A stretch of 62,819 nucleotides of DNA, filler included. It is 9 parts of 9 records of this genome, joined end to end, with 100 filler letters (N's around TTAATTAATTAA, not from the genome) between each part and the next. Parts side by side here need not be neighbours in the genome. Positions count along the whole stretch, not along the records: positions 20,120 to 27,917 come from SRR31147125_19794; 8 more parts are not named here. The stretch is one strand, 5' to 3'. Below the pieces are notes generated by a model. The model had not been told where the DNA came from and did not search any database. It saw only the letters and a program-made list of their open reading frames with translations. Of the stretch, positions 6,383 through 59,200 are shown piece after piece; within the stretch, counting starts at the first letter, position 1, and every line of letters begins with the position of its first letter. Position numbers and translations under genes: made by a program.

Positions 6383-6482
6383 NNNNNNNNNNNNNNNNNN
6401 NNNNNNNNNNNNNNNNNNNNNNNNNNTTAATTAATTAANNNNNNNNNNNNNNNNNNNNNNNNNNNNNNNNNNNNNNNNNNNN
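6383..6482. other. Artificial contig linker
   Basis: N-run, TTAATTAATTAA, N-run. Confidence 0.99.
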
Positions 6483-7463: not shown

Positions 7464-9302
7464 ATGAAGAAATCTTTATATACGACGACTCTACTTTTCC
7501 TACTAATATGTGGAACCGTTTTCGCACAAGAGAAACATTTGTTTATCCTCTCCGGACAATCGAATATGGGAGGTTTACAACCCGAAGAATCGTTTACGCC
7601 TACAGTTGAAGCTGAGTTTGGGAAAGAAAATGTTATTGTAATTAAAGATGCACTGGGCGGGCAACCTATTCGTCGTTGGTATAAAAACTGGAAACCAAAA
7701 GTAGGTGATGAACCGGTGGCTTCAGGCGATTTGTACGACAGACTCATGGAAAAGGTAAATGCATCGATTTCAGGAGAAAAACTGGAAACAGTTACGTTTA
7801 TTTGGATGCAGGGCGAACGCGATGCCCGTGAAAAGCATGGTGAAGTTTACAAGGAAAGCCTCATTGGTTTATATAAACAACTAAGCAATGATTTGAACCG
7901 AAACGACATCAATTTTGTAAATGGGCGCTTAAGCGATTTCGACATGGCAAATGCCAAATATCCGCACTGGACAATGGTTCGTGAAATTCAGGTAGAAGTT
8001 GCCAACACAAATCCTCGCTTTACGTGGGTGAATACCGACGATTTAAACGACGGTGTTAACCGAAAAGGCAAAGCAATTAAAGATGATTTACACATGTCTG
8101 CCAAGGGATATGTTATTCTTGGAGAACGGTTTGCACAGGAAGCAATCAAATTAATAGAAAGTAATCCTGTCAGAAAAAACGATGGAGTTGATGTTGAGGA
8201 TGCCATTAAAAAATCTAAAACACTTCAATCTACTGAAAAGGCTTACAAAGTTCGCGGCGAAATAAAATACAAACAACCCATTGATTTAAATGATGGCATT
8301 AAAACAGCAAATGCAGAGGCGTTAAATGTGAACCTTTCATTGTTGATGGAAACCGTTAACGAAATCGAATCAGACAATCAAGAGTATAAAAAGAAATACG
8401 ACGGTGGAACACCTTTTCAATCACTCATTAAAAACGGATGCATTGAAAGTTTTCTTTTGTACACTGACGGAGCTTTGGTTCTGGAAGAGTATTTTGGTTT
8501 TTCCGACATCGACATTCCTCATTACCAAATGTCAATTACCAAAAGTGTGGCTTCTTATGCCATGGGAATTGCAATCGACCAGAAAGTGGTGAAAAGTGAA
8601 AATGATTTTATCCTCGATTATCTTCCAGAAGTTGAACAGTCTAAGCTTTCCGAAAACTCAAAAAATATTAGAATACGAGACGTTTTGTCCATGCAATCTG
8701 GTATTCGTTTAAGCGATTTAAAATATAAAGAAGCCAAAACGGATATTGATAAAAGAGTGGAGCAAATTCTATCAAACTCAAATACGCTTGAACCCGGAAC
8801 TGAGTATAAATATTACAGTATCGACCCGGAAATAGCTGTGCATATTTTATACAATACCACAAAAATGGATATGGCAGATTATGTGAATGAAAACCTGTTT
8901 GCACCGATGGGAATTACTGACTTTTCGTTCGACAAATCTGCAACAGGTTTAACAAAAGCCGCTGCCGGAATGAAACTACGTTCGCGAGATATGTTAAAAT
9001 TAGGAATCCTGAATTTGGACAAAGGGAAATTTAATGGCAAACGAATAATCAGTTCACGGTGGGTAAAAAAAGCAAATAAGGAACATGCTGATAATGGCAA
9101 TAATAAATATGGATATTATTGGTGGACTCACTTCATAAACTACAATAACAAACAATACGAAATTAATTCGTGTCGTGGTGCTCACGGGCAATTTATTTAT
9201 GTAATTCCGCAGCTAAATTCAGTGGCAGTATTTACAAGCAACGGAACACGAAAAGCCTTTTCTGTATTGGAAGAGGTAATTATACCAACTTTATCAAATT
9301 AA
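7464..9302 (+). CDS. Secreted fusion: SGNH/sialate O-acetylesterase domain plus beta-lactamase-family serine hydrolase
   Basis: Signal peptide; GQSNM, QGERD and DDLH (SGNH); SITK (SxxK), YYS and RGAHGQ (class C beta-lactamase fold). Confidence 0.8.
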   Translation: MKKSLYTTTLLFLLICGTVFAQEKHLFILSGQSNMGGLQPEESFTPTVEAEFGKENVIVIKDALGGQPIRRWYKNWKPKVGDEPVASGDLYDRLMEKVNASISGEKLETVTFIWMQGERDAREKHGEVYKESLIGLYKQLSNDLNRNDINFVNGRLSDFDMANAKYPHWTMVREIQVEVANTNPRFTWVNTDDLNDGVNRKGKAIKDDLHMSAKGYVILGERFAQEAIKLIESNPVRKNDGVDVEDAIKKSKTLQSTEKAYKVRGEIKYKQPIDLNDGIKTANAEALNVNLSLLMETVNEIESDNQEYKKKYDGGTPFQSLIKNGCIESFLLYTDGALVLEEYFGFSDIDIPHYQMSITKSVASYAMGIAIDQKVVKSENDFILDYLPEVEQSKLSENSKNIRIRDVLSMQSGIRLSDLKYKEAKTDIDKRVEQILSNSNTLEPGTEYKYYSIDPEIAVHILYNTTKMDMADYVNENLFAPMGITDFSFDKSATGLTKAAAGMKLRSRDMLKLGILNLDKGKFNGKRIISSRWVKKANKEHADNGNNKYGYYWWTHFINYNNKQYEINSCRGAHGQFIYVIPQLNSVAVFTSNGTRKAFSVLEEVIIPTLSN

Positions 9303-11863: not shown

Positions 11864-11963
11864 NNNNNNNNNNNNNNNNNNNNNNNNNNNNNNNNNNNNN
11901 NNNNNNNTTAATTAATTAANNNNNNNNNNNNNNNNNNNNNNNNNNNNNNNNNNNNNNNNNNNN
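11864..11963. other. Artificial contig linker
   Basis: N-run, TTAATTAATTAA, N-run. Confidence 0.99.
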
Positions 11964-16401: not shown

Positions 16402-17373
16402 ATGGGTGTGACAAGAATTTTTCAAAATGGCATTTCACTCGTTTTAGATAAAATAAAAATAGTTCCGATTATCTATGCGCTTAATATTTCTCTGGCTTTA
16501 GCATTGGCTATTCCCATGTTTTTGAATCTCAATCATCAAATTGGCTATTCCGGTGTAAGAGATGAGATGGCTGAAAGTTTTAATTATGAATGGTGGACTC
16601 ATTTCAGCTTAAATGCAGATGGATTGAATGAAACCATCAGCCCCAGTCTTTCCGGAGGATATGCAGCCTTGTTTGATAATTTAGAGCTGTTTTTAACCGG
16701 AAAGTTTTTTCATTTTGGTAGCTGGATATTTGTTTTTGGCCTTTGTTATCTGTTTTTGGCCGCTTTTTTTAATGGTGGCGCGATTGCAACTTTTGCTGAT
16801 GAAAAGAGATCTTTTAGTGTGGGGCGATTTTTCTCCTATTCCGGCTATTATTTTCATCACTTTTTCGCACTGGCTGTAACAGCTATTCTCGTTTTTTTTA
16901 TTGTCTACAAGTTTTTAAGCCCTGTCATTTTTAATATAATTGATGCTTTGACTGTTTCATGGATGTCTGAAAGAGCTGTATGGTTCATGAATCTCCTCGG
17001 CTATGTGGTGTTATTATTTGTTGTTATCTTTATCAACATGATCTTTGATTATACCAAAATTATTGTTGTTGTTGAAAAGAAAGAATCTTCCTGGCTCTGC
17101 ATTTGGCTGGCCATTAAATTTGTCATGCAGCACTTTTTGCAAACATCTGGTCTCTATTTATTATTGTCATTAGTTGGGCTTATACTGGTTGTGATATTTG
17201 GTTTTATTATAAATATAATTAATCCGTCTCAATTTTTATTGATTGCTGTCGTTTTTCTCATGCAACAGATTTTTATATTGATGAAAATATGGGCGCGACT
17301 AAATTTTTATGGAGCTCAGTATCTGTTTTATACAGCTAAGAATGCCCAGGTCAGAAAGTTGAAAAAAGTTTAA
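16402..17373 (+). CDS. Polytopic membrane protein, unknown function
   Basis: Multiple hydrophobic segments; RBS GAGG. Confidence 0.7.
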   Translation: MGVTRIFQNGISLVLDKIKIVPIIYALNISLALALAIPMFLNLNHQIGYSGVRDEMAESFNYEWWTHFSLNADGLNETISPSLSGGYAALFDNLELFLTGKFFHFGSWIFVFGLCYLFLAAFFNGGAIATFADEKRSFSVGRFFSYSGYYFHHFFALAVTAILVFFIVYKFLSPVIFNIIDALTVSWMSERAVWFMNLLGYVVLLFVVIFINMIFDYTKIIVVVEKKESSWLCIWLAIKFVMQHFLQTSGLYLLLSLVGLILVVIFGFIINIINPSQFLLIAVVFLMQQIFILMKIWARLNFYGAQYLFYTAKNAQVRKLKKV

Positions 17374-17510
17374 TATCTTTTCTCCGCCTGAAAAGATGGG
17401 ACATGATATCGCAAGTTTCAATTTCTGTTTGTTTTGCCGGATTGACTGCAATGTCGGTGACATATAAAACATATAAACATTGTCTCTGCTATTTATAATG
17501 AGAGGAATTC

Positions 17511-20019: not shown

Positions 20020-20119
20020 NNNNNNNNNNNNNNNNNNNNNNNNNNNNNNNNNNNNNNNNNNNNTTAATTAATTAANNNNNNNNNNNNNNNNNNNNNNNNN
20101 NNNNNNNNNNNNNNNNNNN
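20020..20119. other. Artificial contig linker
   Basis: N-run, TTAATTAATTAA, N-run. Confidence 0.99.
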
Positions 20120-20129
20120 TCGGAAGTCA

Positions 20130-20203
20130 AAAATTTTCATCAAAAGCGGTCGAAAATCGCGAGTCTCGGACCCGCAATGAATCAGGGCGGGGAAAGGACC
20201 CGT
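20130..20203 (-). other. Lambda-like cos packaging site (cosQ-cosN-I2-like)
   Basis: Minus strand ACGGGTCCTTTCC-CCGCCCTGATTCA-TTGCGGGTCCGAGACTCGCG-ATTTTCG...ATGAAAATTTT parallels lambda ACGGGTCCTTTCC...TTACGGGGCGGCGACCTCGCGGGTTTTCG...ATGAAAATTTT (lambda recalled from memory). Confidence 0.75.
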
Positions 20204-20274
20204 CGAGCATCCCCTGCATGCTCCCGGCCAGCTGCCATCAGGAGGTAAGAATCTGTAAAATGTACTCAATGCAA

Positions 20275-21175
20275 TCAGCCTTTGCTTTCAATATCACTTT
20301 CATTATCAGTTCTTATCTTAAAATATTTAGAATATGTTGATAAATGAGTGTAGGATTCCATTTCTTCGATCATTTTTTTTGAGTACCTCATTTTGATATT
20401 TTGAACAAAAAAGAGTGATAGAATCAAAAAGAAAATGAATGAAATTGATAGTAACATTAGTCCTTTTAATGATAAAATTGATAATTTAACTGCTTCTAAG
20501 GAAATATCAAAACTGCCACTTTGACTTGTAGGCAAAAAATATAGTGGAAGAATAACACCTATAAAAAATAGAAAAGTGACCAAAATTAAAGCGTAAGTGA
20601 TTTGAGGTGATGATTCTGGATTCCCTTTAAGAGAGGCAAGCGTTGTAGAGATAAGACGTATCTGTTGCTTGGCATCTCGAAAAGAGTTATTGATATTTTC
20701 TTGTTCTTTTATAACCCATAGATTGATCCCCCTTCAAAATTTGGCTCTAAATTTGATGGGATAGAAAACTCTGAGCTATAAATTGAAAAAAGTTTATTTT
20801 ATTTCTGCTCTCCAAGCCTTCATAATCTGAAATTACATTGTTAATCATGTTGATTATTTTTAGACGTGGAATAAAAATAGAAAAATTTAAACGTTCATAG
20901 AATTGTTGAGCAGGAGGGTGCGGAGTAATTGAAAGTTTGTCTATTAAGTGCCTAATTTCTATATAAGTGCTTTTAAAATTGTATAACTCAAAGTCAAAAT
21001 CATAAACATGATCAATTAGTTGGCGGCTCCGATTTAATAGTTCCTTACAGTGAATGTTTTTCTCCGAGAAAGTAGATTGGTTATTCAAAATTTTGGTTAT
21101 AATAAAAGCACCAAACAAACCGACGATAGCAGCCGCAGATTGTGATAAAGAACTAAAGAACCAATTCCAATCCAT
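20275..21175 (-). CDS. AT-rich accessory membrane protein, unknown function (frameshifted near 20733-20770)
   Basis: MDWNWFFSSLSQSAAAIVGLFGAFIITK (TM), soluble helical middle, two C-terminal TMs; the frame of ORF 20275-20583 stays open upstream to about 20733. Confidence 0.7.
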
Positions 21176-21670
21176 ATGCACCTTTTCAAAATACCTTTTT
21201 CTAAAAATCAAGGTAGATTTGATACATTAGGGAAATAACGAACTCAACCTTAACGAATCAACTAAATTGGAGATAATCATCCATGACAGAAAATAGCAAG
21301 GTTAAAGTCTCTGACCGGTCACCCGGATAAAAATCATTCCTTTAGAAAGTGCAGGGACAATATCATGCAAACCGGTTGACCCAGGACTTAGCAAATGTTC
21401 AGTGTCAGAAGTTAAAAATGGCGCGGCCTGTTCCTACTGATAGCTCTATCTCTCAGCCGTTTTCAGGTAATGTTCCACGGCAAGGGTGAAAAGATTTGTG
21501 AAAAATTGCGGAGCGGGAAAAAAGGGGCACACTCCGGTCTACGCTTAAAGCCCCAGACTTTTGACCCCCGCACCCCTTATACGGCTTTAGCTCCAAGGCT
21601 TTTGAACGTTCCGACATGGTGTGAAGGAGAAGCGGCCACAATACACTCCACCTGCCTATGATTTGTGGTT

Positions 21671-21943
21671 TCACTTGTTCGACAAAGAACGCCGAGACGT
21701 AGCGCCCACAACCCTTGCAATGTCAAACGGCAACGGCCTTGGGCGCTGGTCAGGGTAGAATATGGCAACCAAAAGCCGGGCACAGTTCAATGATTCCTCC
21801 CGGGCGTCTGTAGTATCAGATGGTTTGCCACTGGTATCCCCGGCCATGGGGCAGCCCTGGCAAGAAAAATCCTGGCCATCCTTCACAGCCACCCGGGCAA
21901 GGCATGTGCTATACTTTCCGCACCATATGTTCCGCATAATCAT
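21671..21943 (-). CDS. Small Cys-rich hypothetical protein
   Basis: WCGKYSTCL...FSCQGC; ATG overlaps the upstream stop (ATGA). Confidence 0.55.
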   Translation of the reverse strand: MIMRNIWCGKYSTCLARVAVKDGQDFSCQGCPMAGDTSGKPSDTTDAREESLNCARLLVAIFYPDQRPRPLPFDIARVVGATSRRSLSNK

Positions 21944-22137
21944 AGCCGTTCCGGGATCCGGGTTCTGAGTGATTCCACAATCTCTGATTCCGTGCAGAAC
22001 CAAATTCCCTTGGTCCCGGATAGCTTTGATTTATGGGCTATGAGAATTCCATCTCTACACAGCCGTCGGGCCAGAGGTTTTCCCACGCCCAACCTGACGG
22101 CTATTTTTTCTAATCCGTAATAAAGTTGCTCAGGCAA
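21940..22137 (-). CDS. Small winged-HTH DNA-binding protein (Xis/MerR/Nu1-like fold)
   Basis: LEKIAVRLGVGKPLARRLCRDG-I helix-turn-helix pattern; RBS GGAG upstream. Confidence 0.6.
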   Translation of the reverse strand: MPEQLYYGLEKIAVRLGVGKPLARRLCRDGILIAHKSKLSGTKGIWFCTESEIVESLRTRIPERL

Positions 22138-22158
22138 TTATATCTTCTCCGTAATGAA

Positions 22159-22830
22159 TCAATCACAATTTGACTCTGGTGCAGGCGGGGTGGCTATGGG
22201 TGCATCTCCAGGAAACTGACCCGGCCATGTCAGGAACAAGGGGTGTATTCCGGGCAGGAGGTAAGCATTCCCCGCTGATACTCTGTTCATCAAATCACAT
22301 ATGTTTTGTTTTTCATGCTCAGAGGGTCTGGTTACTCGCGTCGCAGGTTTTTGAATGGCGGTAATACCATTACCTCGGTTTTTGGCCGATGGCTGCGACG
22401 CGATAGATTTATCAAGGTAGTAACCACGCTCCCAGCAATCACAATGAGATTCAGCATGGGTAACCGGGTGATCCTTAGGCCCAATGCCGTGAACATTTAC
22501 GATCCCACATACCGGGCAGGTGAAGTGGGAAACCCCATTTTCAATCTCAACCTTGAATGTCGGCACTTCTGGGAACTCATACCTGTCTATCAGTCCTTTC
22601 CGTGCGATACGCTTCAAACATATCGGACAGGTGACCTTAGATATCTTTTTTGTGACGGTGCACTCGTAACGGTACAATTGGAGCCTTCGTGATTTTAAGC
22701 ACCCGTTATTTGCATAGTGAATCAATGATTCTTCTCTTTTCCCCATTTTACCATACTTGGGCAGCCTTTCATTTTTCACCTTTTCAGTTTGATTTATAAA
22801 TCTAAAAATATATCGAGAGAGTAGTGACAC
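22159..22830 (-). CDS. Hypothetical zinc-binding phage-type protein (start uncertain)
   Basis: CPIC and CPVCG...HG...HAESHC motifs. Confidence 0.45.
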   Translation of the reverse strand: MSLLSRYIFRFINQTEKVKNERLPKYGKMGKREESLIHYANNGCLKSRRLQLYRYECTVTKKISKVTCPICLKRIARKGLIDRYEFPEVPTFKVEIENGVSHFTCPVCGIVNVHGIGPKDHPVTHAESHCDCWERGYYLDKSIASQPSAKNRGNGITAIQKPATRVTRPSEHEKQNICDLMNRVSAGNAYLLPGIHPLFLTWPGQFPGDAPIATPPAPESNCD

Positions 22831-23041
22831 ACCTAAGGGGTGTCACACACTCTATATATAGGGGGTGACACCCCTGACACCCCGCGCCAATAGGGGCTTT
22901 CAGGGGGCGTCACGGATGCGTGAGCGTGACACCCCCTTGAGAAGTCTTGAAACCCTTGATAGGCGGACCTTTGAAAGGGTGTCACACAAGCGATGACACC
23001 CCCATGACACCCCTGAGCCGGTGACACCCCTGTGACACCCC
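22825..23041. repeat. Iteron-like array (putative replication origin)
   Basis: 11 copies or variants of TGACACCCC in both orientations plus a CTATATATAG palindrome, immediately after the primase-helicase. Confidence 0.8.
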
Positions 23042-23055
23042 ACAATGTGGTACTT

Positions 23056-25198
23056 TTAGTTTTCCAGTGCATGGTAAACATATCCTTTCACCCCACCTGC
23101 TGATTTTGGTTCACATCTGATGAATTTGTATTTTGACGCAGCCACGATATGCCTTCTCGCAGTTGCAGGGGAAACCCCAGAAAAATCTTGATAGGCGGCT
23201 GCCAAGGCCTTATTGCTGCCAGCATATCCACCCATATCAAGTAGGGCTTGGCTGACAGCATTACAAATTTCCATCTGCTCGGCTGGAATGCTTTCATTCA
23301 CTGGTTCAAACCGTAATTTATCGGTCATCCTCAATAAAAACGATTCGAACAAGGGCATGTTGTTGGATTTCTCGTGCTTGACCCTTATACAAGGGATCTG
23401 GGCCGTTCGCCGGCCTGTTACTTTACCTTGGGAATCAATGTCCGTGATCCGGTCCTCTCCTATGAATTCCCGGCTCAATGAAATCATATTTCTGGACCAA
23501 TCAGGGATTGCACTTGACCCCCTGTAATCGCCGTTTTTGTTATTATGGTGAATGACAATTGGGGTGATCCCTGTTTCCTGGGCAATGAAAGTAATTGCAT
23601 CCAGGGCAGCCCGCATACGGCCGGCGTCATTCTCCTGCCCATCATGGAAACTGACAAAAGGATCAAAAACCACGATGTCCACCTTTCTGCCCTGGTGTTT
23701 TTCTGTGGCTCTAACAGCGTTAATACACCAGCTAACAGATTCCGGATTTTCAAGAGATTTGCTGATACTTAAAATATCTCCCCCCATGAGCGGGAAGTTG
23801 ATATATTTCAAAGCGGATTGATAGTCCGGGATATCTCCGGCCATTTTTGATAAACGAGAATTGACGGTAGCCATTGAATTTTCCGTTTGAAAAAATAATG
23901 ACGACAATCTTTTTTTTATGGGGAATTTACCAAAAGCTTTCCGGGGAACTTCACAGCAAACTCAAGAGTCATAAAGGTAGACATATTGCTTTTCCCAAGT
24001 CCCCCCGGTGCCGTTATAAGCATGAAATCCCCCTTATTGATGAAACCCTCAACAAGAGGTTCTACCTGTGGATTCAATTCCCTGATTCCCCAGGCTGAAA
24101 TGATGTCAATTGGTTCCGAGGGAGTGATAAGTTCCGCTTCTGATAGCTCGGGCTCCGGTTCAAACGAAACCTCTGTCGCATTTTTTATCAGGTCTTTAGC
24201 CCGTTCCGCCTGCCCGGTTTGCAAGGCATCATTGATATCAAATCCATCCGGGTCATCTGTGGCCCATTTGAATGAACAAACTTTCATTCGATAATCTCCA
24301 TTATTGACTGGAGCATTTTTTGACTGGCGCTATCATTGTCAACGCAGACGATAACCTTTTCGACGTGTGGTATGTATGGCCTCAAGGCTTTCACCTTAGC
24401 CGTATACGTGCTACCTCCCAGAGCGATACAACAAGTATCAGGAAACCACTCAACGGCCGTAATTGTATTGATAACCGCCTCACAAATGATGATGGTATTT
24501 CCCTGTGGATCCCCGTCAAAAGAGCGTAGATCGGCCCCGCACATGAAAAAGCATTCTGCCCCGGGTAGTGAACCTTTCAGGAACACCTTATTTGCAGGGC
24601 TTCCGTTTTTCTCTGTGAAGGGGAATGGCTTTCCATCAGTGCTGAGATACTGAATCGCCTTGACTTCTCCCTGTAGGGTTTTAAACGGTATCGCCACACA
24701 CGTTTTATCTGCATGTGTTTTAACCTGAACCTGTCACAGGTCATACAGAGCTTTTATGGTCATTTTTGCAATTCCTCGCCGGCCATGCAAAAAATCATAA
24801 ATTGCAGTCGGTTTTCTGGATTCGTTTAGGCTGGCAATCCCGTTCCACTCGTCCTGAATAGTACGGTTGGAAGTTTTAGGTGATGAGTTGTTTTGTTGCC
24901 GGGTAGGGGGCTGCCATGTGTTGCCTGAATGGCCCGGACAGTATTCTTTTAAAAGTTGGCCAACGTCTTTCCCATACCGCCACCCCTGAAAATCAATTTT
25001 ATCCATTCCAGTGGGGTGACATTGGCGGCAAAAAGCTTTTCCGGAATTGGTTTTATAGACAAATCTGTCTTTTCCGCCACAGACCGGGCAGGGACCACAA
25101 AGACTGTTTGAGGATTCCTTTACCAGTCCCGGGCAGCATGACAGAACATCTGGTAGAACGGATTTTAGCAACTCTATCTTGTTATCGGTCATGGTCAC
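23056..25198 (-). CDS. P4-alpha-like primase-helicase (Zn finger, TOPRIM, AAA_25/RepA helicase, wHTH), interrupted
   Basis: GPCPVCGGKDRF...FCRQC; IIICEA, CVDND, DINDAL; Walker A APGGLGKS; VVFDP, VIHHNNK, RGSSA. In-frame TGA at 24734-24736 and 1-nt deletions near 24288 and 23933. Confidence 0.85.
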
Positions 25199-25210
25199 GC
25201 TTAAACCTAA

Positions 25211-25426
25211 TTACAATTCGCAACTGGCCAAAGATCGAATCCTTTTGGCTTCTTTTATTTGTGCTTCCCTGGCTTGCTCTGCCATCCTTTTCCACTCGTC
25301 CAGATCCACATACAGTTTCCCGGCAATTTTAAGGATCAGGGCAGGGAACTTTTTCTTGCTGTGGTATTTATAGGCGGTGTGTTTGTTCAACGGGGACTCG
25401 CTGGCGGTAATTGATACAAGATTCAT
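25211..25426 (-). CDS. Xis/AlpA-like DNA-binding protein
   Basis: TAYKYHSKKKFP...KIAGKLYVD pattern; ATG after GGAAG; directly upstream of the primase. Confidence 0.6.
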   Translation of the reverse strand: MNLVSITASESPLNKHTAYKYHSKKKFPALILKIAGKLYVDLDEWKRMAEQAREAQIKEAKRIRSLASCEL

Positions 25427-25723
25427 AATTACTTCCTTCCTATGTTTTTGCGTTTGATTGGATACAACAATACAACCCGGTACATAATTAGTCAAGCGGG
25501 TAAAAGATGATAAGATGTTGAATTACGGTATGTTAGCATTATTCGATAATTATCGAGTAATTAATATTAAGCGGGTATTGTGTTTTTACCGAGTAGTTTT
25601 AAGGAAAACAAAGAGATAGGGTGAGGACTCCACAAGAGGGATGGCTCACCCTTTTTGCGAACTATGCGAATATTGCGAAGGGATTTTTAAAATGAAAAGA
25701 TACTTTTGTGCCTTTTATACGTT

Positions 25724-26564
25724 TTATATATGCGGTTTGGTTTTTAGTTTCTCTGCCACTCTTGCGTTTTTATAAGCTGTCCTGCAAATATCAGAACAGA
25801 ATTTTTTACGCCCCCTGCGCTGGATAGCTGTAAATCGTCCACATTGTTCGCAGAACAGGTAATAGTCTTGGCCGCCAAGAGATAGGAAGTCAAGAAAAAT
25901 ATTTGATAAGATTGGTGTAAAATACATCATAAAAATCGGAATCGGGGGAAATATTTCCTAAACGATTATAATATAATTCACCGCCAAATGTCCTCACCTT
26001 GACCATTTTTCCATCTAAGGGGACGAATGTGTCAGTTAAACTGGTATATTCTGCAAACAGCCTGCCGATCATAGGCCCTTCTTTTGTCTTATCATTGCGA
26101 ATATTGGCAAAAAGAACATCCCAGGGGGCCCCTGATTTTTTGATTTTTTTCAGCAAATGTATGGCTTCGCCTCTCAGTTCCAACACATTAACAATTTCGT
26201 TATAGTATACCCACTTTAATTCAAGTTCTTTTAGAATCGCTCTTTTTTTCTGATCTTGAATATCGGTGGTGCTGGTATTTTCTGGCAACCCCATATCTTT
26301 AAGCGTACTCTTTGCCTTTTGATATCGTATTTCCTCTTGGCGCTTAAAATAATCAATATCGGGGACAAGCCCTTCCTGTAAGAAATCCACCTTCTCAATT
26401 TCTCCTACCCAACTTTTGGAATAGTCTATAGGGTGCACCGCATCAACCAACTTTATGCCTTGACCAATTAACTGTCTAAAATCCCAGATTTTGATTTTTG
26501 GATCTAAAAATTTCTCCAACCATTGCCCCAACTCAACCATTTTTTTAAACTCATTACTGGCCAT
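25724..26564 (-). CDS. Hypothetical protein with C-terminal CGNR-like zinc finger, putative regulator (frameshift near 25935-25950)
   Basis: ORF 25890-26564 continues in another frame into CEQCGRF...KKFCSDICR. Confidence 0.6.
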
Positions 26565-26565
26565 T

Positions 26566-27726
26566 CTATTGATTTCCTTTCCTGGTATTCAGTTCAATAA
26601 TATCTGCCGTTCTTGTTTGCGTTTGCAACTGATCTGATAGGTTCACAGCATCTCTAAGGGTTTTATCTGCAAGATGGGCGTATCTTTGGGTTGTGCCTGC
26701 GTCCTTGTGGCTTAAAAGTTTTTGCACGGTGTAAAGATCAATGCCGTTGCTTACGAGAGAGCTTGCGAAGTGGTGTCTTAAATCGTGAAAACGGAAATCA
26801 GGGGGTAGGCCGGCAGCTTCTTTTATCTTTGTCCAGCTGTGACGAATTGTTTTCCGCTGTTCTCCTCTTGTGGAATAAAAAATAAAGGGTGTATCAAAGT
26901 CTCTGGGAACGTGAAGCAGAACCCCGGTGGCTTTATCTGAAAGGGGGAGGGTCTGGTCCAATACTCCTTTTGGATCTCTCAGGATCACGGTTTGTCGTTC
27001 AAGGTCCACATCATCCCAGGTGAGTTTAAATATTTCCCCCCGCCGGAAACCGGTGTAAAGGCAGAATTCCACAATAGAGGAGGGGATTTTATCCGTCCAG
27101 GTGGAGAGGGTATTTAAAAGCCGGGTTACTTCCTCTTCACTCAAAAAAGCCTGAATTTGATTGTTCAGCTTTGGCTTTTTCACCCGGTCACAGGGATTCG
27201 CCCCGGTATGCTCCCCCCATTGAATGGCCACGTTAAAAACTCTGGTCAGCAATACCAGCTGGTGCTTGATGGTGGTGGGGGATAGAGGTTTTCCCTTTTG
27301 CCCCTTCTTTTTCTTTAGGATCAAAACAAACCTTTCGATATCAAAGGGGCTTATCTTGTCCAAGCCCTTTGTCCCCAGTGCCGGGCCAATGTGCTTGTTA
27401 AAATTGCATTCATCCACATACCAGGACTTTTTATTGACCTTGAGCCAGGGCAAATATTTTTTATCCCAGAATTCTTTGAGGGGGATCGCCTGGGTTTTCT
27501 TTTTAATATCGAATTCCCCCCTCACCGCTGCCGCCTTGAATTTATTCTCTACCTCTCGGGCAACTTCAAGGGTATCCACAATCCGGGTTTTTTGTTTCCC
27601 GTTTACTCTGACTCGGACACGGTACTTTCTCCCTCTCTTGGGAATAGGTTCCCCACATTTTCCACATTTTTTTTGTGTCATTTGCACACTGGTTTTGCAA
27701 CTCTGACAAAAAAAACTGATAGCCAT
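26566..27726 (-). CDS. Tyrosine recombinase/integrase
   Basis: Catalytic R (TGFRRGE), K (DPKG), HDLRH, H (LSHKD), Y (RYAH); N-terminal CxxC...CxxC. Confidence 0.95.
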   Translation of the reverse strand: MAISFFCQSCKTSVQMTQKKCGKCGEPIPKRGRKYRVRVRVNGKQKTRIVDTLEVAREVENKFKAAAVRGEFDIKKKTQAIPLKEFWDKKYLPWLKVNKKSWYVDECNFNKHIGPALGTKGLDKISPFDIERFVLILKKKKGQKGKPLSPTTIKHQLVLLTRVFNVAIQWGEHTGANPCDRVKKPKLNNQIQAFLSEEEVTRLLNTLSTWTDKIPSSIVEFCLYTGFRRGEIFKLTWDDVDLERQTVILRDPKGVLDQTLPLSDKATGVLLHVPRDFDTPFIFYSTRGEQRKTIRHSWTKIKEAAGLPPDFRFHDLRHHFASSLVSNGIDLYTVQKLLSHKDAGTTQRYAHLADKTLRDAVNLSDQLQTQTRTADIIELNTRKGNQ

Positions 27727-27750
27727 TTTCTACCCCCCTCCAACCTAAAG

Positions 27751-27769
27751 AGTGTACCTATAGTGTACC
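27751..27769. repeat. Putative integrase arm-type sites
   Basis: AGTGTACC direct repeat at 27751 and 27762, between int and att. Confidence 0.5.
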
Positions 27770-27887
27770 ACCTGGTTTATTATGTTCTACCAAATAATAT
27801 CACACGGTATAAATCATATAACCGAGCACCGACTATCTGTCAAGGGATCTACGAAAATTTACAAAGGGGTACAAAACATAAAATTCG

Positions 27888-27917
27888 GACTTAGGATCTA
27901 GTGCCGCGAGGCGTGGA
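27888..27917 (+). tRNA. 3' fragment of tRNA-Leu(TAG), the att site of the element
   Basis: Anticodon loop CTTAGGA, 3' stem TCTAG and long variable arm GCC-GCGA-GGC; the 5' side does not pair as an anticodon stem; truncated by the contig end. Confidence 0.7.
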
Positions 27918-28017
27918 NNNNNNNNNNNNNNNNNNNNNNNNNNNNNNNNNNNNNNNNNNNNTTAATTAATTAANNNNNNNNNNNNNNNNNNNNNNNNNNN
28001 NNNNNNNNNNNNNNNNN
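27918..28017. other. Artificial contig linker
   Basis: N-run, TTAATTAATTAA, N-run. Confidence 0.99.
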
Positions 28018-28770
28018 AAAAATCTTCATGTAGAAATTGAAGGTAAAAAGATATTAAATGGTGTTAACCTAACGGTTAATTCTGGAGAAGTTCATGCGAT
28101 TATGGGTCCAAATGGGACGGGAAAATCAACATTAGCAAGTGCACTTATGGGGCACCCAAAATATGAAGTCACTCAAGGTGAAGCATACTTAGATGGCGAA
28201 AATCTTTTAGAGATGGAAGTTGATGAAAGAGCAAGAGCAGGGTTGTTTTTAGCGATGCAATATCCAGCTGAAGTGCCGGGTGTTACAAATAGTGATTTTA
28301 TGAGACAAGCGTTAAATGCAACATCTGAAAAAAATGTAGGTTTAATTGAGTTTGCGATGGATTATGAGCAAAAAGTTGATGAACTTAAAATGCGTCCTGA
28401 TTTAGCGCATCGTTACTTAAATGAAGGTTTTAGTGGTGGAGAAAGAAAAAGAAATGAAATTCTTCAATTAAAAGTATTAAAACCTAAGTTTGCGATTCTT
28501 GATGAAATTGACTCAGGATTAGATGTTGATGCATTAAAAGTTGTTGGTCAAAATGTTAATGATATGGTTAGTGATGCATTTGGTTGTATCTTAATTACAC
28601 ATTATCAAAGAATCCTCGATCACATTACACCAACAAATGTACATATAATGATTGATGGTAAAATCGTGTTATCAGGTGGAAAAGAATTAATTGAAAAAAT
28701 TGATCAAAACGGATATGAATGGATAAAAGACGAATTAGGGATCGAATTTAGAGAAAGTGAAGAAGCTTAA
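28018..28770 (+). CDS. sufC: Fe-S assembly ATPase SufC (5' truncated)
   Basis: GPNGTGKST, NEGFSGGERKRNE, DEIDSGLDVDAL. Confidence 0.95.
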   Translation, partial: KNLHVEIEGKKILNGVNLTVNSGEVHAIMGPNGTGKSTLASALMGHPKYEVTQGEAYLDGENLLEMEVDERARAGLFLAMQYPAEVPGVTNSDFMRQALNATSEKNVGLIEFAMDYEQKVDELKMRPDLAHRYLNEGFSGGERKRNEILQLKVLKPKFAILDEIDSGLDVDALKVVGQNVNDMVSDAFGCILITHYQRILDHITPTNVHIMIDGKIVLSGGKELIEKIDQNGYEWIKDELGIEFRESEEA

Positions 28771-28772
28771 TC

Positions 28773-29648
28773 ATGCATCAAATTATTATTAAAGATCATG
28801 AAATTAAGTCTGGGTTACCCAAAGGATTTATCTTTGATAATCAGTCACTTTTTATCCCTAAAAATCAAATATTCCAAGATCCGATTAAAATAACTCTTGA
28901 AGATGATAATAACGAAACATTAAATATTGTTGTTGAAGAAAATACAAGTATAAAAATTATTTTAGAAATCGCAAGTAGCGATGTCGCAAAAAATAACTAT
29001 AAATTAAATTTAACCGCAAATCAAAATGCTCAAGTTAAATATCTATTGGTTGCTGAATTAGAAAGTAAGGATGCTTTATTAGAGCATTATTTTACAGCAA
29101 AAAGAGATGCTAAACTTGATTTGATTGGTGGATTTGTATCAAATATTATTAATGCTAAGATGCACGTTGATCTTGTTGAACAAGGTGCAGAAGTAAAAAT
29201 GAGAGCAGTTGCTGTATCTTCTGATGATCACATTCAAAACATTGATGTTTTAATCGTTCATGAAGCACCTGATACATTTGGTGATATGACGAATATTGGG
29301 ATTGCCAATAAACGTGGTAAAATCATATTAAATGGTGTAGAAAAAATCAAGAAAGGTATGAAACGAGCAAATGCTTTCCAAACATTAAAAGGCATTATCA
29401 CATCTGATGAGGCAAATGTTGAGGTTAATCCTATTTTATTAATTGATGAATATGATGTTGCTGCTGGACATGGCGCAACAATCGGTAAAATCGAAGAAGA
29501 TCAACTTTACTACTTACAAAGTAGAGGATTAACAAGAACAGAAGCTGAAAAATTAATTATTAATGGATTTTTAACACCAATCATTGATGAAATTGATGAT
29601 GAACCATTAAAAGAAAGATTTGTTAATCTCGTTAACTCTCGTATATGA
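28773..29648 (+). CDS. sufD: Fe-S assembly protein SufD
   Basis: NPILLIDEYDVAAGHGATIG, LYYLQSRG; operon position. Confidence 0.9.
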   Translation: MHQIIIKDHEIKSGLPKGFIFDNQSLFIPKNQIFQDPIKITLEDDNNETLNIVVEENTSIKIILEIASSDVAKNNYKLNLTANQNAQVKYLLVAELESKDALLEHYFTAKRDAKLDLIGGFVSNIINAKMHVDLVEQGAEVKMRAVAVSSDDHIQNIDVLIVHEAPDTFGDMTNIGIANKRGKIILNGVEKIKKGMKRANAFQTLKGIITSDEANVEVNPILLIDEYDVAAGHGATIGKIEEDQLYYLQSRGLTRTEAEKLIINGFLTPIIDEIDDEPLKERFVNLVNSRI

Positions 29649-30850
29649 TAGATGTAAAAAAAGTAAAACAAGATTTTCCAATACTCACCAATCACCCAGA
29701 ACAAATTTATCTAGATTCAGCTGCATCTAGTTTAAAAACAAAGTCTGTGATTGATTTGATTGATTACTATTATGATCACTTAGGTACAAATGTACATAGA
29801 GGAGCATATGATTTGTCACAACAAACGACAAACCTTTATGAAAAATCTAGAGCGAAAATTGCAAAGTTTATTCATGCTGATGTCGAAGAAGTTGTTTTCA
29901 CTAGAGGGACCACAACTGCATTAAACATGGTTGCAGGTTCTTATAGAGAAAAATTAAATCAAGGTGATGAAGTGATTACAACAGAACTAGAGCATCATTC
30001 ATCTGTGATTCCTTGGATGATGGCAACTAAAAGAAGTGGTGCAACTCTAAAATACATTCCATTAAATGATGAAGGCCGTATTACAGTAGATGCATTTAAA
30101 TCAGTACTTACTGATCAAACAAAAGTTGTTGCTATCACGTATGTTTCAAATGTAATGGGTTATATTACACCGATAAAAGAAATCATTAAACTAGCACATG
30201 AAAAAGGTGCACTTGTGATCGTTGATGCTGCTCAAGCTGCACCACATTTACAAATAGATGTTAAAGATCTTAATTGTGATTTCTTAGCATTCTCTGGCCA
30301 TAAAATGTTTGGACCTACAGGTGTTGGTATCTTATATGGAAAAAAAGATGCATTAAATGCAATAGAACCATTTGAATTTGGTGGTGAAATGGTAGATACC
30401 ATTTCAAAAGATCAATTAAAATGGCAAGAAATTCCTACTAAGTTTGAAGCGGGAACACCAGTTATAGGTGCAGCAATCGGTCTTCAAAAAGCTGTTGAAT
30501 ATATTGAATCTATTGGTTATGATGCGATTCATCAGCATACCATTAAACTTAGAGATTATACACTTAAACAATTAGAAGTACTAGATGGTATAACCATTTA
30601 TAATAAAAACGCAGATATAGGCATTATCACATTAAATATTGATGGCGTTCATCCACATGATGCAGCAACATTCTTATCTGAAAAAAATGTTGCGATTCGT
30701 GCAGGTAAGCATTGTGCACATTTAATTGCAGATCGCATGAAAATGGGAGCAACCTTAAGAGCGGCATTCCAAATATATAATGATTATCATGATTGTGATG
30801 TATTTGTAGAAACCATCAAAGAAACCAGAGATTTCTTTGCACAATTTTAG
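29645..30850 (+). CDS. sufS: Cysteine desulfurase SufS
   Basis: YLDSAA, SGHKM (PLP lysine), RAGKHCA. Confidence 0.95.
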   Translation: MIDVKKVKQDFPILTNHPEQIYLDSAASSLKTKSVIDLIDYYYDHLGTNVHRGAYDLSQQTTNLYEKSRAKIAKFIHADVEEVVFTRGTTTALNMVAGSYREKLNQGDEVITTELEHHSSVIPWMMATKRSGATLKYIPLNDEGRITVDAFKSVLTDQTKVVAITYVSNVMGYITPIKEIIKLAHEKGALVIVDAAQAAPHLQIDVKDLNCDFLAFSGHKMFGPTGVGILYGKKDALNAIEPFEFGGEMVDTISKDQLKWQEIPTKFEAGTPVIGAAIGLQKAVEYIESIGYDAIHQHTIKLRDYTLKQLEVLDGITIYNKNADIGIITLNIDGVHPHDAATFLSEKNVAIRAGKHCAHLIADRMKMGATLRAAFQIYNDYHDCDVFVETIKETRDFFAQF

Positions 30851-30853
30851 GAA

Positions 30854-31309
30854 GTGACCACATTGAATTTAGAAACACTCTATAGACAAGTTATCATGGA
30901 TCATTACAAAAGACCAAGAAATAAAGGTTTAGTCAATGATGCAACATATATAACTATACATTTAAATAATCCCAGTTGTGGCGATGAATTAACCGTACAA
31001 CTAAAAGTGGATGAAAATAAACAAATAATTGATGTTAAACATGAGGGTGCAGGTTGTTCAATTTGTTGCTCAAGTGCATCTGTGATGAGTGAAACACTCA
31101 AAAATAAGTCACTAGATGAAGCAGAAAACATCATACATGAATTTTATGAATTAATTAAAGGATATCCCTTTAGAAAAGATATTTTAAAAGGGGATGCCAT
31201 TGTATATCAAGGTGTTTCACAGTTTCCCGCAAGAATTAAATGTGCAACATTGGCGTGGAAAGCAGTGGAACAAGGTATAATAAAAACAAAGGAGGAAGAA
31301 AGCAAATGA
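30854..31309 (+). CDS. sufU: SufU/NifU-type sulfur transfer protein
   Basis: NPSCGD, GCSIC, RIKCATL. Confidence 0.95.
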
Positions 31310-35144: not shown

Positions 35145-35244
35145 NNNNNNNNNNNNNNNNNNNNNNNNNNNNNNNNNNNNNNNNNNNNTTAATTAATTAA
35201 NNNNNNNNNNNNNNNNNNNNNNNNNNNNNNNNNNNNNNNNNNNN
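35145..35244. other. Artificial contig linker
   Basis: N-run, TTAATTAATTAA, N-run. Confidence 0.99.
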
Positions 35245-40271: not shown

Positions 40272-40371
40272 NNNNNNNNNNNNNNNNNNNNNNNNNNNNN
40301 NNNNNNNNNNNNNNNTTAATTAATTAANNNNNNNNNNNNNNNNNNNNNNNNNNNNNNNNNNNNNNNNNNNN
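40272..40371. other. Artificial contig linker
   Basis: N-run, TTAATTAATTAA, N-run. Confidence 0.99.
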
Positions 40372-48478: not shown

Positions 48479-48578
48479 NNNNNNNNNNNNNNNNNNNNNN
48501 NNNNNNNNNNNNNNNNNNNNNNTTAATTAATTAANNNNNNNNNNNNNNNNNNNNNNNNNNNNNNNNNNNNNNNNNNNN
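48479..48578. other. Artificial contig linker
   Basis: N-run, TTAATTAATTAA, N-run. Confidence 0.99.
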
Positions 48579-55157: not shown

Positions 55158-55257
55158 NNNNNNNNNNNNNNNNNNNNNNNNNNNNNNNNNNNNNNNNNNN
55201 NTTAATTAATTAANNNNNNNNNNNNNNNNNNNNNNNNNNNNNNNNNNNNNNNNNNNN
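55158..55257. other. Artificial contig linker
   Basis: N-run, TTAATTAATTAA, N-run. Confidence 0.99.
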
Positions 55258-57967: not shown

Positions 57968-59200
57968 ATGAAAAGACGTATATTAAATATAGCTCTATTG
58001 TTAGTAGTATTGCAAGTACTTGGTCTGACTAAGTTATCAGCCAACGAGGAGAGGCTTGTTGTTGGTGACACAGCAATAGATTTTCCAGAGAATCGTACAT
58101 GGTATGCTGGCAGTCCGGTAAGTCTGGATGAGAACAAAGGGAAAAAGGTTACTCTGATTTATTTTATGAAACCCGGATGTGGTAGTTGTGATAAATTAGC
58201 ACCACACTTATATCGCCTGATCCTGAAGAACAAAGATAATCTCTCTGTTATCGGGGTTACTGAGTATCCAGATAGTAAAATTGTAGAATATCTTGCCAAA
58301 CGCCTCGGTGATTATCCAATAATGCAGGATCCTGAGCGTAAGTTTATGGACAAGTATATTGGTAAGATCAATAAGTATCCATATATGGCTATTATTGATA
58401 GAGAAGGTAAGCTAGCGTGGTTTGGACGAGGTAAGTTTCACGCCCAGATAACAGCAGAGCTCGATAAAGTACTGCAGGAGAAAGAGCCTGTGGCAGAGAA
58501 AGCATTTGTGCCTGAGAAATTGAGTGCTCTGGTTGTTGGGGTAGATAAGTCTGATCTTGTTCCTGCAGTTTTGGCTACCTCTGAGAATAATGCAAAACTT
58601 GTTGGTACTACGCTTGAAGAGGCTGGTTATAAAGATTTAAAAGTACTCACTGGTGCTGATGCCACAGCCATTGCATTTAATGACAGCGTGAGAGAATTTG
58701 CCGGTGCTGCTACAGAAAAGGATGCGGCATTATTATACTTTTCAGGTGAGGCTATGCCTGAGCAGACAATAGATGGCATAGACTTGAAGCTTTATCTCAA
58801 GGATGCAACAGTCTCTTTGAAGAAGGTAATCAGTGATTACAAAGCAGTGAGTCAGTGCAAGAATATTCTTGTGGTAATAGATGCCAATAATGAGAACAGT
58901 CATTTTGATGTATGGGAGAATATTGCTCCGGACATGGAGAAGACTTCTGCAGGCGCAACGGTTATGCTTGCTGCTGCACGCTGGGATCGTTCGCTTATAG
59001 GTACTAATCCTGATACAACAGTATTCACCGAAGAGTTTGCCCGTATGATTCAACAGTGCAAAGAGGGGAATAATGAACTTACTCCGCTAATTCTCTGGAG
59101 CGGACTGCGAGATTCTATGAGTGCTATCAGTCGTGAAACAGGGGTTTTGCAATCACCATTTATTATCAATGAAAAAGCGTTCAACCTTATTGCTGAGTAA
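57968..59200 (+). CDS. Secreted thioredoxin/TlpA domain plus inactive caspase-like (peptidase C14) domain
   Basis: Signal peptide; CGSC; ALVVGVD, LLYFSGEA, VVIDAN, VFTEE, QSP. Confidence 0.75.
   Translation: MKRRILNIALLLVVLQVLGLTKLSANEERLVVGDTAIDFPENRTWYAGSPVSLDENKGKKVTLIYFMKPGCGSCDKLAPHLYRLILKNKDNLSVIGVTEYPDSKIVEYLAKRLGDYPIMQDPERKFMDKYIGKINKYPYMAIIDREGKLAWFGRGKFHAQITAELDKVLQEKEPVAEKAFVPEKLSALVVGVDKSDLVPAVLATSENNAKLVGTTLEEAGYKDLKVLTGADATAIAFNDSVREFAGAATEKDAALLYFSGEAMPEQTIDGIDLKLYLKDATVSLKKVISDYKAVSQCKNILVVIDANNENSHFDVWENIAPDMEKTSAGATVMLAAARWDRSLIGTNPDTTVFTEEFARMIQQCKEGNNELTPLILWSGLRDSMSAISRETGVLQSPFIINEKAFNLIAE

Follow-up and report, generated by a model that had tools for sequence, protein, structure and literature searches.

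The minus strand of positions 20130-20203 carries a cosQ-cosN site of the phage λ type. Judged by its sequence, the site would work like λ cos but falls in an 11-base class, outside λ's own group. We consider it probable that the site is the packaging signal of a PICI-like satellite in a Desulfobacterales host, packed by a helper with a gpA-family terminase. The stretch analysed (62,819 nucleotides; here, the window) consists of nine contigs of unlike composition, joined by eight identical 100-base linkers, each made of N runs around a six-frame stop word (6383-6482, 11864-11963, 20020-20119, 27918-28017, 35145-35244, 40272-40371, 48479-48578, and 55158-55257). The site sits 11 bases from the end of the 7.8-kb contig 20120-27917. 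Since the linker at 20020-20119 is an artificial joint between separate contigs, the DNA and genes to the left of the site are unrelated to the element. Elsewhere in the window, the next contig carries an ordinary-looking Suf iron-sulfur cluster operon (28102-31309, plus strand; genes labelled by eye). Two plus-strand ORFs encode fusions: an AhpC/thioredoxin domain joined to a caspase-like Peptidase_C14 domain (57968-59200), and a sialate O-acetylesterase joined to a beta-lactamase-like domain (7464-9302), the latter followed by a glucoamylase-like gene.

Read from 20203 to 20130, the minus strand is letter for letter as an earlier note on this DNA gave it. The cosQ word GGGTCCT (20195-20201), which is identical to that of λ (J02459) and is the predicted packaging-termination signal, stands first. 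It is followed by a 22-nt spacer (20173-20194) that ends in a conserved CG and leads to the predicted top-strand nick. The cosN core GGTCCGAGACT (20162-20172), with CG on either side, would form an 11-base 5' cohesive end if cut as we infer. Around it lies a 21-base dyad (20157-20177) in which 7 of 10 positions are symmetric. CG pairs at both predicted nick sites and partial two-fold symmetry are thus both present, as in a λ-type cos; the 12-base stagger and the 23-nt distance from cosQ to the nick are not, the values here being 11 and 22. In the available portions of PMC4669245 and PMC9026076, the CG flanks and cosQ are the conserved parts of λ/N15-type cos. Beyond the core, bp 12-53 from the predicted left end (20120-20161) form an I2-like stretch containing the A/T tract ATGAAAATTTT (20130-20140). 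The λ cosB site R3, placed at bp 50-65 in the portion of PMC9026076 available, would start where the contig stops, at bp 53; cosB, with its R sites and IHF site, would lie past this end.

Local alignment of the site to the ends of J02459 gave a score of 173. The earlier note had staked the likeness on a comparison with shuffled controls, and none of 10,000 dinucleotide shuffles reached that score (mean 84, maximum 144). Indeed, the site ranked first among 1,779 window tiles aligned to λ cos, with the next non-overlapping tile at 122. The alignment also bore out that 13 nt around cosQ are the same as in λ and that the spacer and the core are each one base shorter (22 versus 23 and 11 versus 12). 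The claim that ATGAAAATTTT is common to both sites held for its presence but not for its position, which is offset (bp 33-43 versus 31-41). Because of this shift, and because no verbatim copy occurs in the Desulfobacteria gpA-linked sites compared, we give the tract little weight.

The geometry of the site recurs at gpA terminases of Desulfobacteria. gpA was found in 45 of 401 genomes, at 62 places, of which 60 were studied (two had fewer than 410 bases upstream); TerL was located in 59. Upstream of gpA in these 59 loci, the cosQ word GGGTCCTT occurs 31 times on the coding strand and 3 times on the other strand, against 8 occurrences of the reversed word. It is present in 30 of 59 loci, and in 23 of the 34 whose upstream DNA extends to 5.5 kb or more. 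From the Desulfobacteria gpA loci we hand-picked 27 training sites, with registers set by our own scoring rule; by that rule the core measures 11 bases in 20 sites and 12 in 7, the modal spacer is 22, and the commonest spacer/core combination is 22/11 (9 of 27). A strict CG-flank rule could be called at 14 of 59 loci and not at the other 45; it gave 11 bases in 11 cases and 12 in 3. A model built from the 27 sites, with the window left out, scored the window site at 25.0 bits, and the next best position in the window at 7.9. With the same model λ cos scored 22.5 bits and the best control, in 4.56 Mb of reversed DNA, 18.5; the site of phage RcDormio reached only 18.0, below the control maximum.

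Viral sequences show the same arrangement beside terminase genes. Four stretches (L283, L284, L285, and L290) have cosQ, a spacer of 21-23 nt and the window's core with the centre base alone changed; L291-L293 repeat these contigs or are near-identical to them, and L288 was discarded as a chance match lacking cosQ. In L285 the cos site is followed by a small HTH gene, gpA and a λ-family portal gene, and in L284 gpA lies 2.6 kb after the site. The stretch of L283 that was examined contains no terminase; its window-like cos (1329-1371) lies between an AAA_25 gene and PAPS-reductase/ParB-like genes. A looser pattern matched seven viral stretches, six of them with gpA downstream. The window site fits the geometry of an 11-base gpA cos class (cosQ, a spacer of 20-24 nt, and CG-11-CG) that includes RcC phages and Desulfobacteria prophages and in phages precedes a gpA terminase; no terminase stands beside the window copy. 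Two further observations concern the surroundings of such sites. In several gpA phages (L285, L290, L378, and RcCronus), cos is immediately preceded by a minor-tail-Z-like gene. Enteric-type islands (L264 at 8884; L268 at 6005 and 8453) have a 22-nt spacer and a 12-base core equal to the window's plus one base; L264 has a Clp-capsid fusion before cos and a small HTH gene after it, and L268 has two cos copies.

A public assembly covers the entire element in a single contig, which differs from the window by seven inserted letters and two substitutions; this assembly comes from the one public run that contains the element, possibly of the source sample, and so does not count as independent biology. 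Another run, X2, contains next to none of the element. The single bases missing from the window assembly fall at 20727, 20785, 21517, 22736, 23931, 24736-24737, and 25918, and none of the changes lies within 20130-20203. Restoring them clears most of the apparent frameshifts of the element, so that several of these are assembly artefacts; other contigs of the window may be affected too.

The same run holds a second copy of the site. A 125-base contig matches 20120-20185 with two differences, of which one is placed at 20150 and neither is listed for the core. Its depth is 68 against 71 for the element, which is not a measure of copy number. Upstream, the second copy diverges yet has a variant of cosQ at an unchanged distance, with 22-nt spacing but a different spacer sequence. 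Both cos contigs end at 20120, 31 bases behind the last difference, with 20120-20149 common to both. The contig ends would be explained if the two copies merge there into a shared downstream repeat on the cosB side. The second copy may belong to a helper prophage, to a sibling island or to a second cos of the same island.

The genes of the contig all lie on the minus strand and point at the cos site. Farthest from it is a full-length tyrosine integrase of the Desulfobacterales type with an N-terminal zinc ribbon (26566-27726; PF00589, E 1.7e-34), whose named relatives come from Desulfotignum (61%) and Desulforapulum (57%). Behind it follow an ORF with a C-terminal zinc finger (25724-26564), a single gene in the related island L301 and split here by the error at 25918, and a small protein for which we propose an excisionase- or regulator-like role (25211-25495). 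The latter has no Pfam name and is common to related islands, with 34-48% matches in L130, L131, L132, L135, L136, and L301-L303. The primase-helicase (23056-25198; P0121, 728 aa; zinc ribbon, Toprim, AAA_25) is in four pieces. Two of its breaks are assembly errors; the third, between Toprim and helicase at about 24290, persists in the public assembly; there, overlapping stop and start codons could couple translation. Directly behind this gene, direct and inverted GTGACACCCC repeats form an iteron cluster (22836-23041), which is likely the replication origin.

Between the iterons and the cos site are a zinc-ribbon ORF of no assigned function (22159-22830; its start is hit by the assembly error at 22736), a 65-aa HTH_17 DNA-binding protein (21940-22137; PF12728, E 1.9e-5) that none of 58 candidate small terminases matched, a small Cys-rich ORF (21671-22003) with a 50% match in L386, an island that also carries a cos, and an AT-rich cargo gene (20275-21211). 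The cargo gene encodes a membrane protein of about 314 aa; assembly errors at 20727 and 20785 interrupt it in the window. Its family is widespread, with 154 full-length homologues, and has no Pfam, PADLOC or NCBIfam name; it is a candidate anti-phage gene. PADLOC and NCBIfam gave the accessory ORFs no name either. We note that the cargo gene adjoins cos, the usual spot for satellite defence genes.

At the outer end of the contig, a piece at 27885-27917 (plus strand, reading outwards) resembles the anticodon and variable arms, in the 3' half, of a tRNA-Leu(TAG), a likeness judged by eye; ARAGORN called no tRNA there and Rfam gave no match. It is covered by short high-depth contigs and is therefore multi-copy. 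The piece is likely an att junction, which would place the integration site at a tRNA gene.

Set beside PICIs, the element has an integrase at one end and a primase-replicase followed by an origin (with one break remaining), and its assembled part has no tail, TerL or lysis genes. A candidate for flanking att sequence is the multi-copy tRNA-like piece at one end, the other end lying beyond the assembly. Candidates for an AlpA/MerR/Stl-type regulator are two small DNA-binding-like ORFs, one of them HTH_17 and neither named AlpA. No TerS or Rpp gene is in the contig, and its usual position, just behind cos, falls outside the assembly. A capsid-morphogenesis gene is likewise absent from the contig, in which the element is incomplete. 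More broadly, no terminase, capsid, tail or lysis gene was recognised in the assembled 7.8 kb. When 63 ORFs of the contig were compared with 58 candidate TerS proteins, the sole blastp match covered 19 residues within the iteron region and was discounted; nor did anything in the window match gpA. The earlier note's view that a gpA-family terminase must come from outside therefore stands, with no gpA or TerS in the window and gpA available in Desulfobacteria at the frequency given above.

The integrase family occurs in 8 of 301 genomes of the order, plus further loci in other searches. Seven islands with accessory genes in common extend 6.9 kb or more past the integrase. Only two of them have a cos-like site, located 6-7 kb downstream of the integrase and on its strand; the other five have none. 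The cos-like sites of L301 and L136 score 30.2 bits (11-base core) and 32.2 bits, respectively. L136, a contig of Desulfothermus okinawensis, has a pair of cos-like sites (17227-17420) that face each other across about 190 bases. L301 (5905-8661) has a different replication gene and, directly before cos, a 918-aa ORF that by eye resembles a topoisomerase VI B/Toprim fusion. The five islands with no detectable cos raise the question of whether the window site is a relic, a real cos on a decayed island that has lost packaging, a reading compatible with a genuine cos. Since the primase-helicase break is present in both assemblies, this copy may be decaying, and L384 offers a precedent: an orphan cos beside a tRNA with a primase-like remnant only. 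The cos elements and their spacing are nonetheless all intact in the window, the integrase is full length, most frameshifts are assembly errors, and the remaining break could couple translation through its stop/start overlap. We regard a relic as somewhat unlikely.

Orphan cos sites were also found by searching for the 11-base pattern, which matched in 5 of 161 genomes of the family (control, 1). Two of the matches are gpA loci; the other three have no gpA in the DNA examined. Pattern matches lacking gpA, L386 among them, and the related islands above lead us to conclude that cos-bearing islands without TerL recur in this group. L386 (G710:C1, cos at 220546-220589) runs from a primase/helicase through cos to a TerS-like gene and more genes, including a 953-aa ORF. 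Its TerS-like gene is 68% identical to that of the gpA locus L345, with the same cosN core, and no TerL match lies within the 20 kb examined. L386 is likely a TerS-bearing satellite. Two other orphan 11-base sites, neither with gpA in its contig, were noted: L384 (G901:C8, 3548-4194), 530 bases from a tRNA-Lys gene, and L385 (G922:C522), behind a replication/helicase module.

L386 bears on a further alternative, in which the contig represents the right-hand arm of either a small or defective prophage or a capsid-forming satellite, with its own terminase and head genes beyond the contig end. Such a site in phages sits just upstream of TerS-TerL, no more than 53 bases of the left end are on the contig, and in L386 a TerS-like gene and a tape-measure-sized ORF do lie behind cos. 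Against this, the interval from integrase to cos holds a satellite-type replication module and cargo only, and neither a repressor pair nor a gene for lysis or late regulation was recognised there. Moreover, L301 has no ORF of at least 50 aa on the coding strand in the roughly 840 bases after cos, and in L136 cos is followed by cargo-like genes on the opposite strand. We judge this alternative unlikely, and the satellite reading remains the preferred one.

The length of the overhang was compared with that of phages whose ends have been mapped. In the part of PMC8601537 available, the 5' overhangs of the Rhodobacter capsulatus RcC phages, as mapped from reads, measure 11 bases, and those of the RcA phages 13 bases. 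The RcC phages RcOceanus, RcDormio, and RcKemmy have gpA-family terminases. The records of RcDormio and RcKemmy start right after CG, with CG again after 11 bases, which is the window's register. By analogy with these, nicking at the site is predicted to leave 20172-20162 single-stranded as an 11-base 5' end. In a terminase tree, the terminase of L284 is sister to that of RcOceanus (SH-aLRT 99) and that of L285 lies elsewhere; the terminases of phages with a window-like core thus fall into two clades. Core length does not track clades, and 11-base sites turn up in various parts of the tree. This is a quick tree only, with long branches for λ and RcCronus. Since the dyad is odd-centred, it would permit a 13-base as well as an 11-base stagger; the RcA phages have 13-base overhangs, and RcCronus also has the cosQ word near its end. 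A CG at each nick, the rule in the available part of PMC4669245, nevertheless fixes the stagger at 11, and the RcC record starts agree with that register. A cut with a 13-base (or 12-base) stagger is accordingly quite improbable.

With seven letters lost elsewhere in this contig, the earlier note's suggestion that homopolymer errors had shortened the spacer and core deserved attention, but it is ruled out: the site is unchanged in the public assembly that reveals those seven losses, and independent phages have the same geometry. That the λ likeness is mere chance, or a λ cos damaged by sequencing errors, is hardly credible given that no shuffle reached its score, that the core is unchanged in the second copy and that identical geometry occurs in unrelated phages.

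No helper with this exact core was found. None of the 59 Desulfobacteria gpA loci has the window's exact core. A strict pattern gave one chance match, inside an ORF, in 401 genomes of the phylum and none in five single genomes. In IMG/VR, the exact 16-base core had six chance matches, all without cosQ; a λ-shaped pattern matched 120 stretches, all enterobacterial-looking and none with a window-like core; and a pattern with the window's left half had no match. Searching 50,697 phage records with the site by blastn yielded only short chance matches, and the integrase alone as query found no viral locus. The earlier note had also read the distinct core as a different cohesive-end specificity. The core does differ, but the difference is best read as an 11- versus 12-base stagger, the core not being the determinant of specificity: in the available portions of PMC4669245 and PMC9026076, packaging specificity in λ and N15 is set by cosB and TerS, not by the core sequence. 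For this reason, and because window-like cores occur in two terminase clades, the helper cannot be identified from its core sequence.

These observations suggest how the satellite would move. The island would integrate at a tRNA gene and excise by means of its own integrase, then replicate from the iteron origin with its own primase-helicase to yield concatemers. The assembled 7.8 kb encode neither terminase nor capsid, so both would come from a helper prophage belonging to the λ gpA family. TerS of the helper, or a satellite TerS or Rpp encoded beyond the contig end, would bind the cosB side, and TerL would nick the CG-flanked dyad 11 bases apart, cutting the minus strand between 20173 and 20172 and the plus strand between 20162 and 20161. 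Packaging would run leftwards in window coordinates, with cosQ, 22 bases upstream, ending it at a later cos. By analogy with EcCICFT073, as described in the part of PMC6092414 available, induction of the helper would thus lead to cutting of cos by the helper terminase and packing of the island into helper heads. Whether Rpp or TerS would redirect the terminase, or a plain copy of the helper's cosB would suffice, depends on the DNA beyond 20120.

Several known systems come close to the element. The λ cos (cosQ-cosN-I2-cosB; the λ/21/phi80/N15/Gifsy-1 group) shares cosQ with its 13-base surroundings, the CG-flanked, partly symmetric cosN and an A/T tract in I2; it differs in its 23-nt spacer, its 12-base core of other sequence and the TerS and TerL genes behind it, none being seen in the window, where the contig ends before cosB. 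The RcC phages RcOceanus, RcDormio, and RcKemmy share the CG-11-CG register, at the record start and beside a gpA-family terminase in their case, but have another core, a degenerate cosQ and a spacer of 21, and are complete alphaproteobacterial phages. The satellite EcCICFT073, with cos1, cos2 and RppA (Fillol-Salom 2018; Murialdo and Feiss 2022), likewise has an integrase, small DNA-binding proteins, a primase-helicase, an origin and cargo, and a helper-type cosQ-cosN without TerL; the present element, too, possibly has two cos copies. In contrast, the present host is a member of the Desulfobacterales, the integrase bears a zinc ribbon, the geometry is 11-base, and no AlpA, capsid or Rpp was recognised in the assembled part. 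Moreover, cosB is private in EcCICFT073, whereas here the cosB side seems common to the second copy. SaPIs that carry the helper's cos resemble the element, in the part of PMC6092414 available, in plain cos mimicry without a TerS of their own; they differ in their Gram-positive hosts and Stl repressor module.

Of the core list of SatelliteFinder, the integrase and the primase-replicase are present and the regulator is doubtful; neither TerS nor a capsid gene can be seen. Because these core components are only partly present, we call the element PICI-like and not a PICI, while noting that the SatelliteFinder preprint does not find a capsid-morphogenesis gene in all PICIs. The main text of that preprint does not contain the string "Desulfo". 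Cos-carrying satellites and 11-base gpA ends are already known separately, as is the mechanism itself. We found no paper on cos-hijacking satellites in Desulfobacterota, nor on cosQ outside enteric phages, with the proviso that Vahanian et al. 2017, on the natural history of cosN, may list non-enteric cos variants.

More tentatively, and with rather less confidence than in the reading of the site itself, we propose that an undescribed family of Desulfobacterota satellites, with a zinc-ribbon integrase and a variable replication module, hijacks helpers of the 11-base gpA class. Some members, such as this element, would copy the whole helper cos without Rpp or TerS, and others, such as L386, would carry their own TerS. 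The cosQ-spacer-cosN grammar would then be conserved across the gpA family, with 11 the common stagger and λ's 12 a variant. The termination word of λ is kept upstream of distant gpA terminases, in 23 of the 34 Desulfobacteria loci with enough upstream DNA. The site yields precise predictions of nick positions and 11-base ends, and also natural variants for the question of how a terminase sets the length of its stagger. Satellites that hijack cos have been studied in E. coli and Staphylococcus; the present element would extend them to the sulfate reducers. Of the five SatelliteFinder PICI core components, islands of this kind have three at most, and they would be missed by that tool, while cos grammar finds them. 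If the proposal is true, cos grammar could find orphan satellites that protein-based tools miss and pair them with their helpers.
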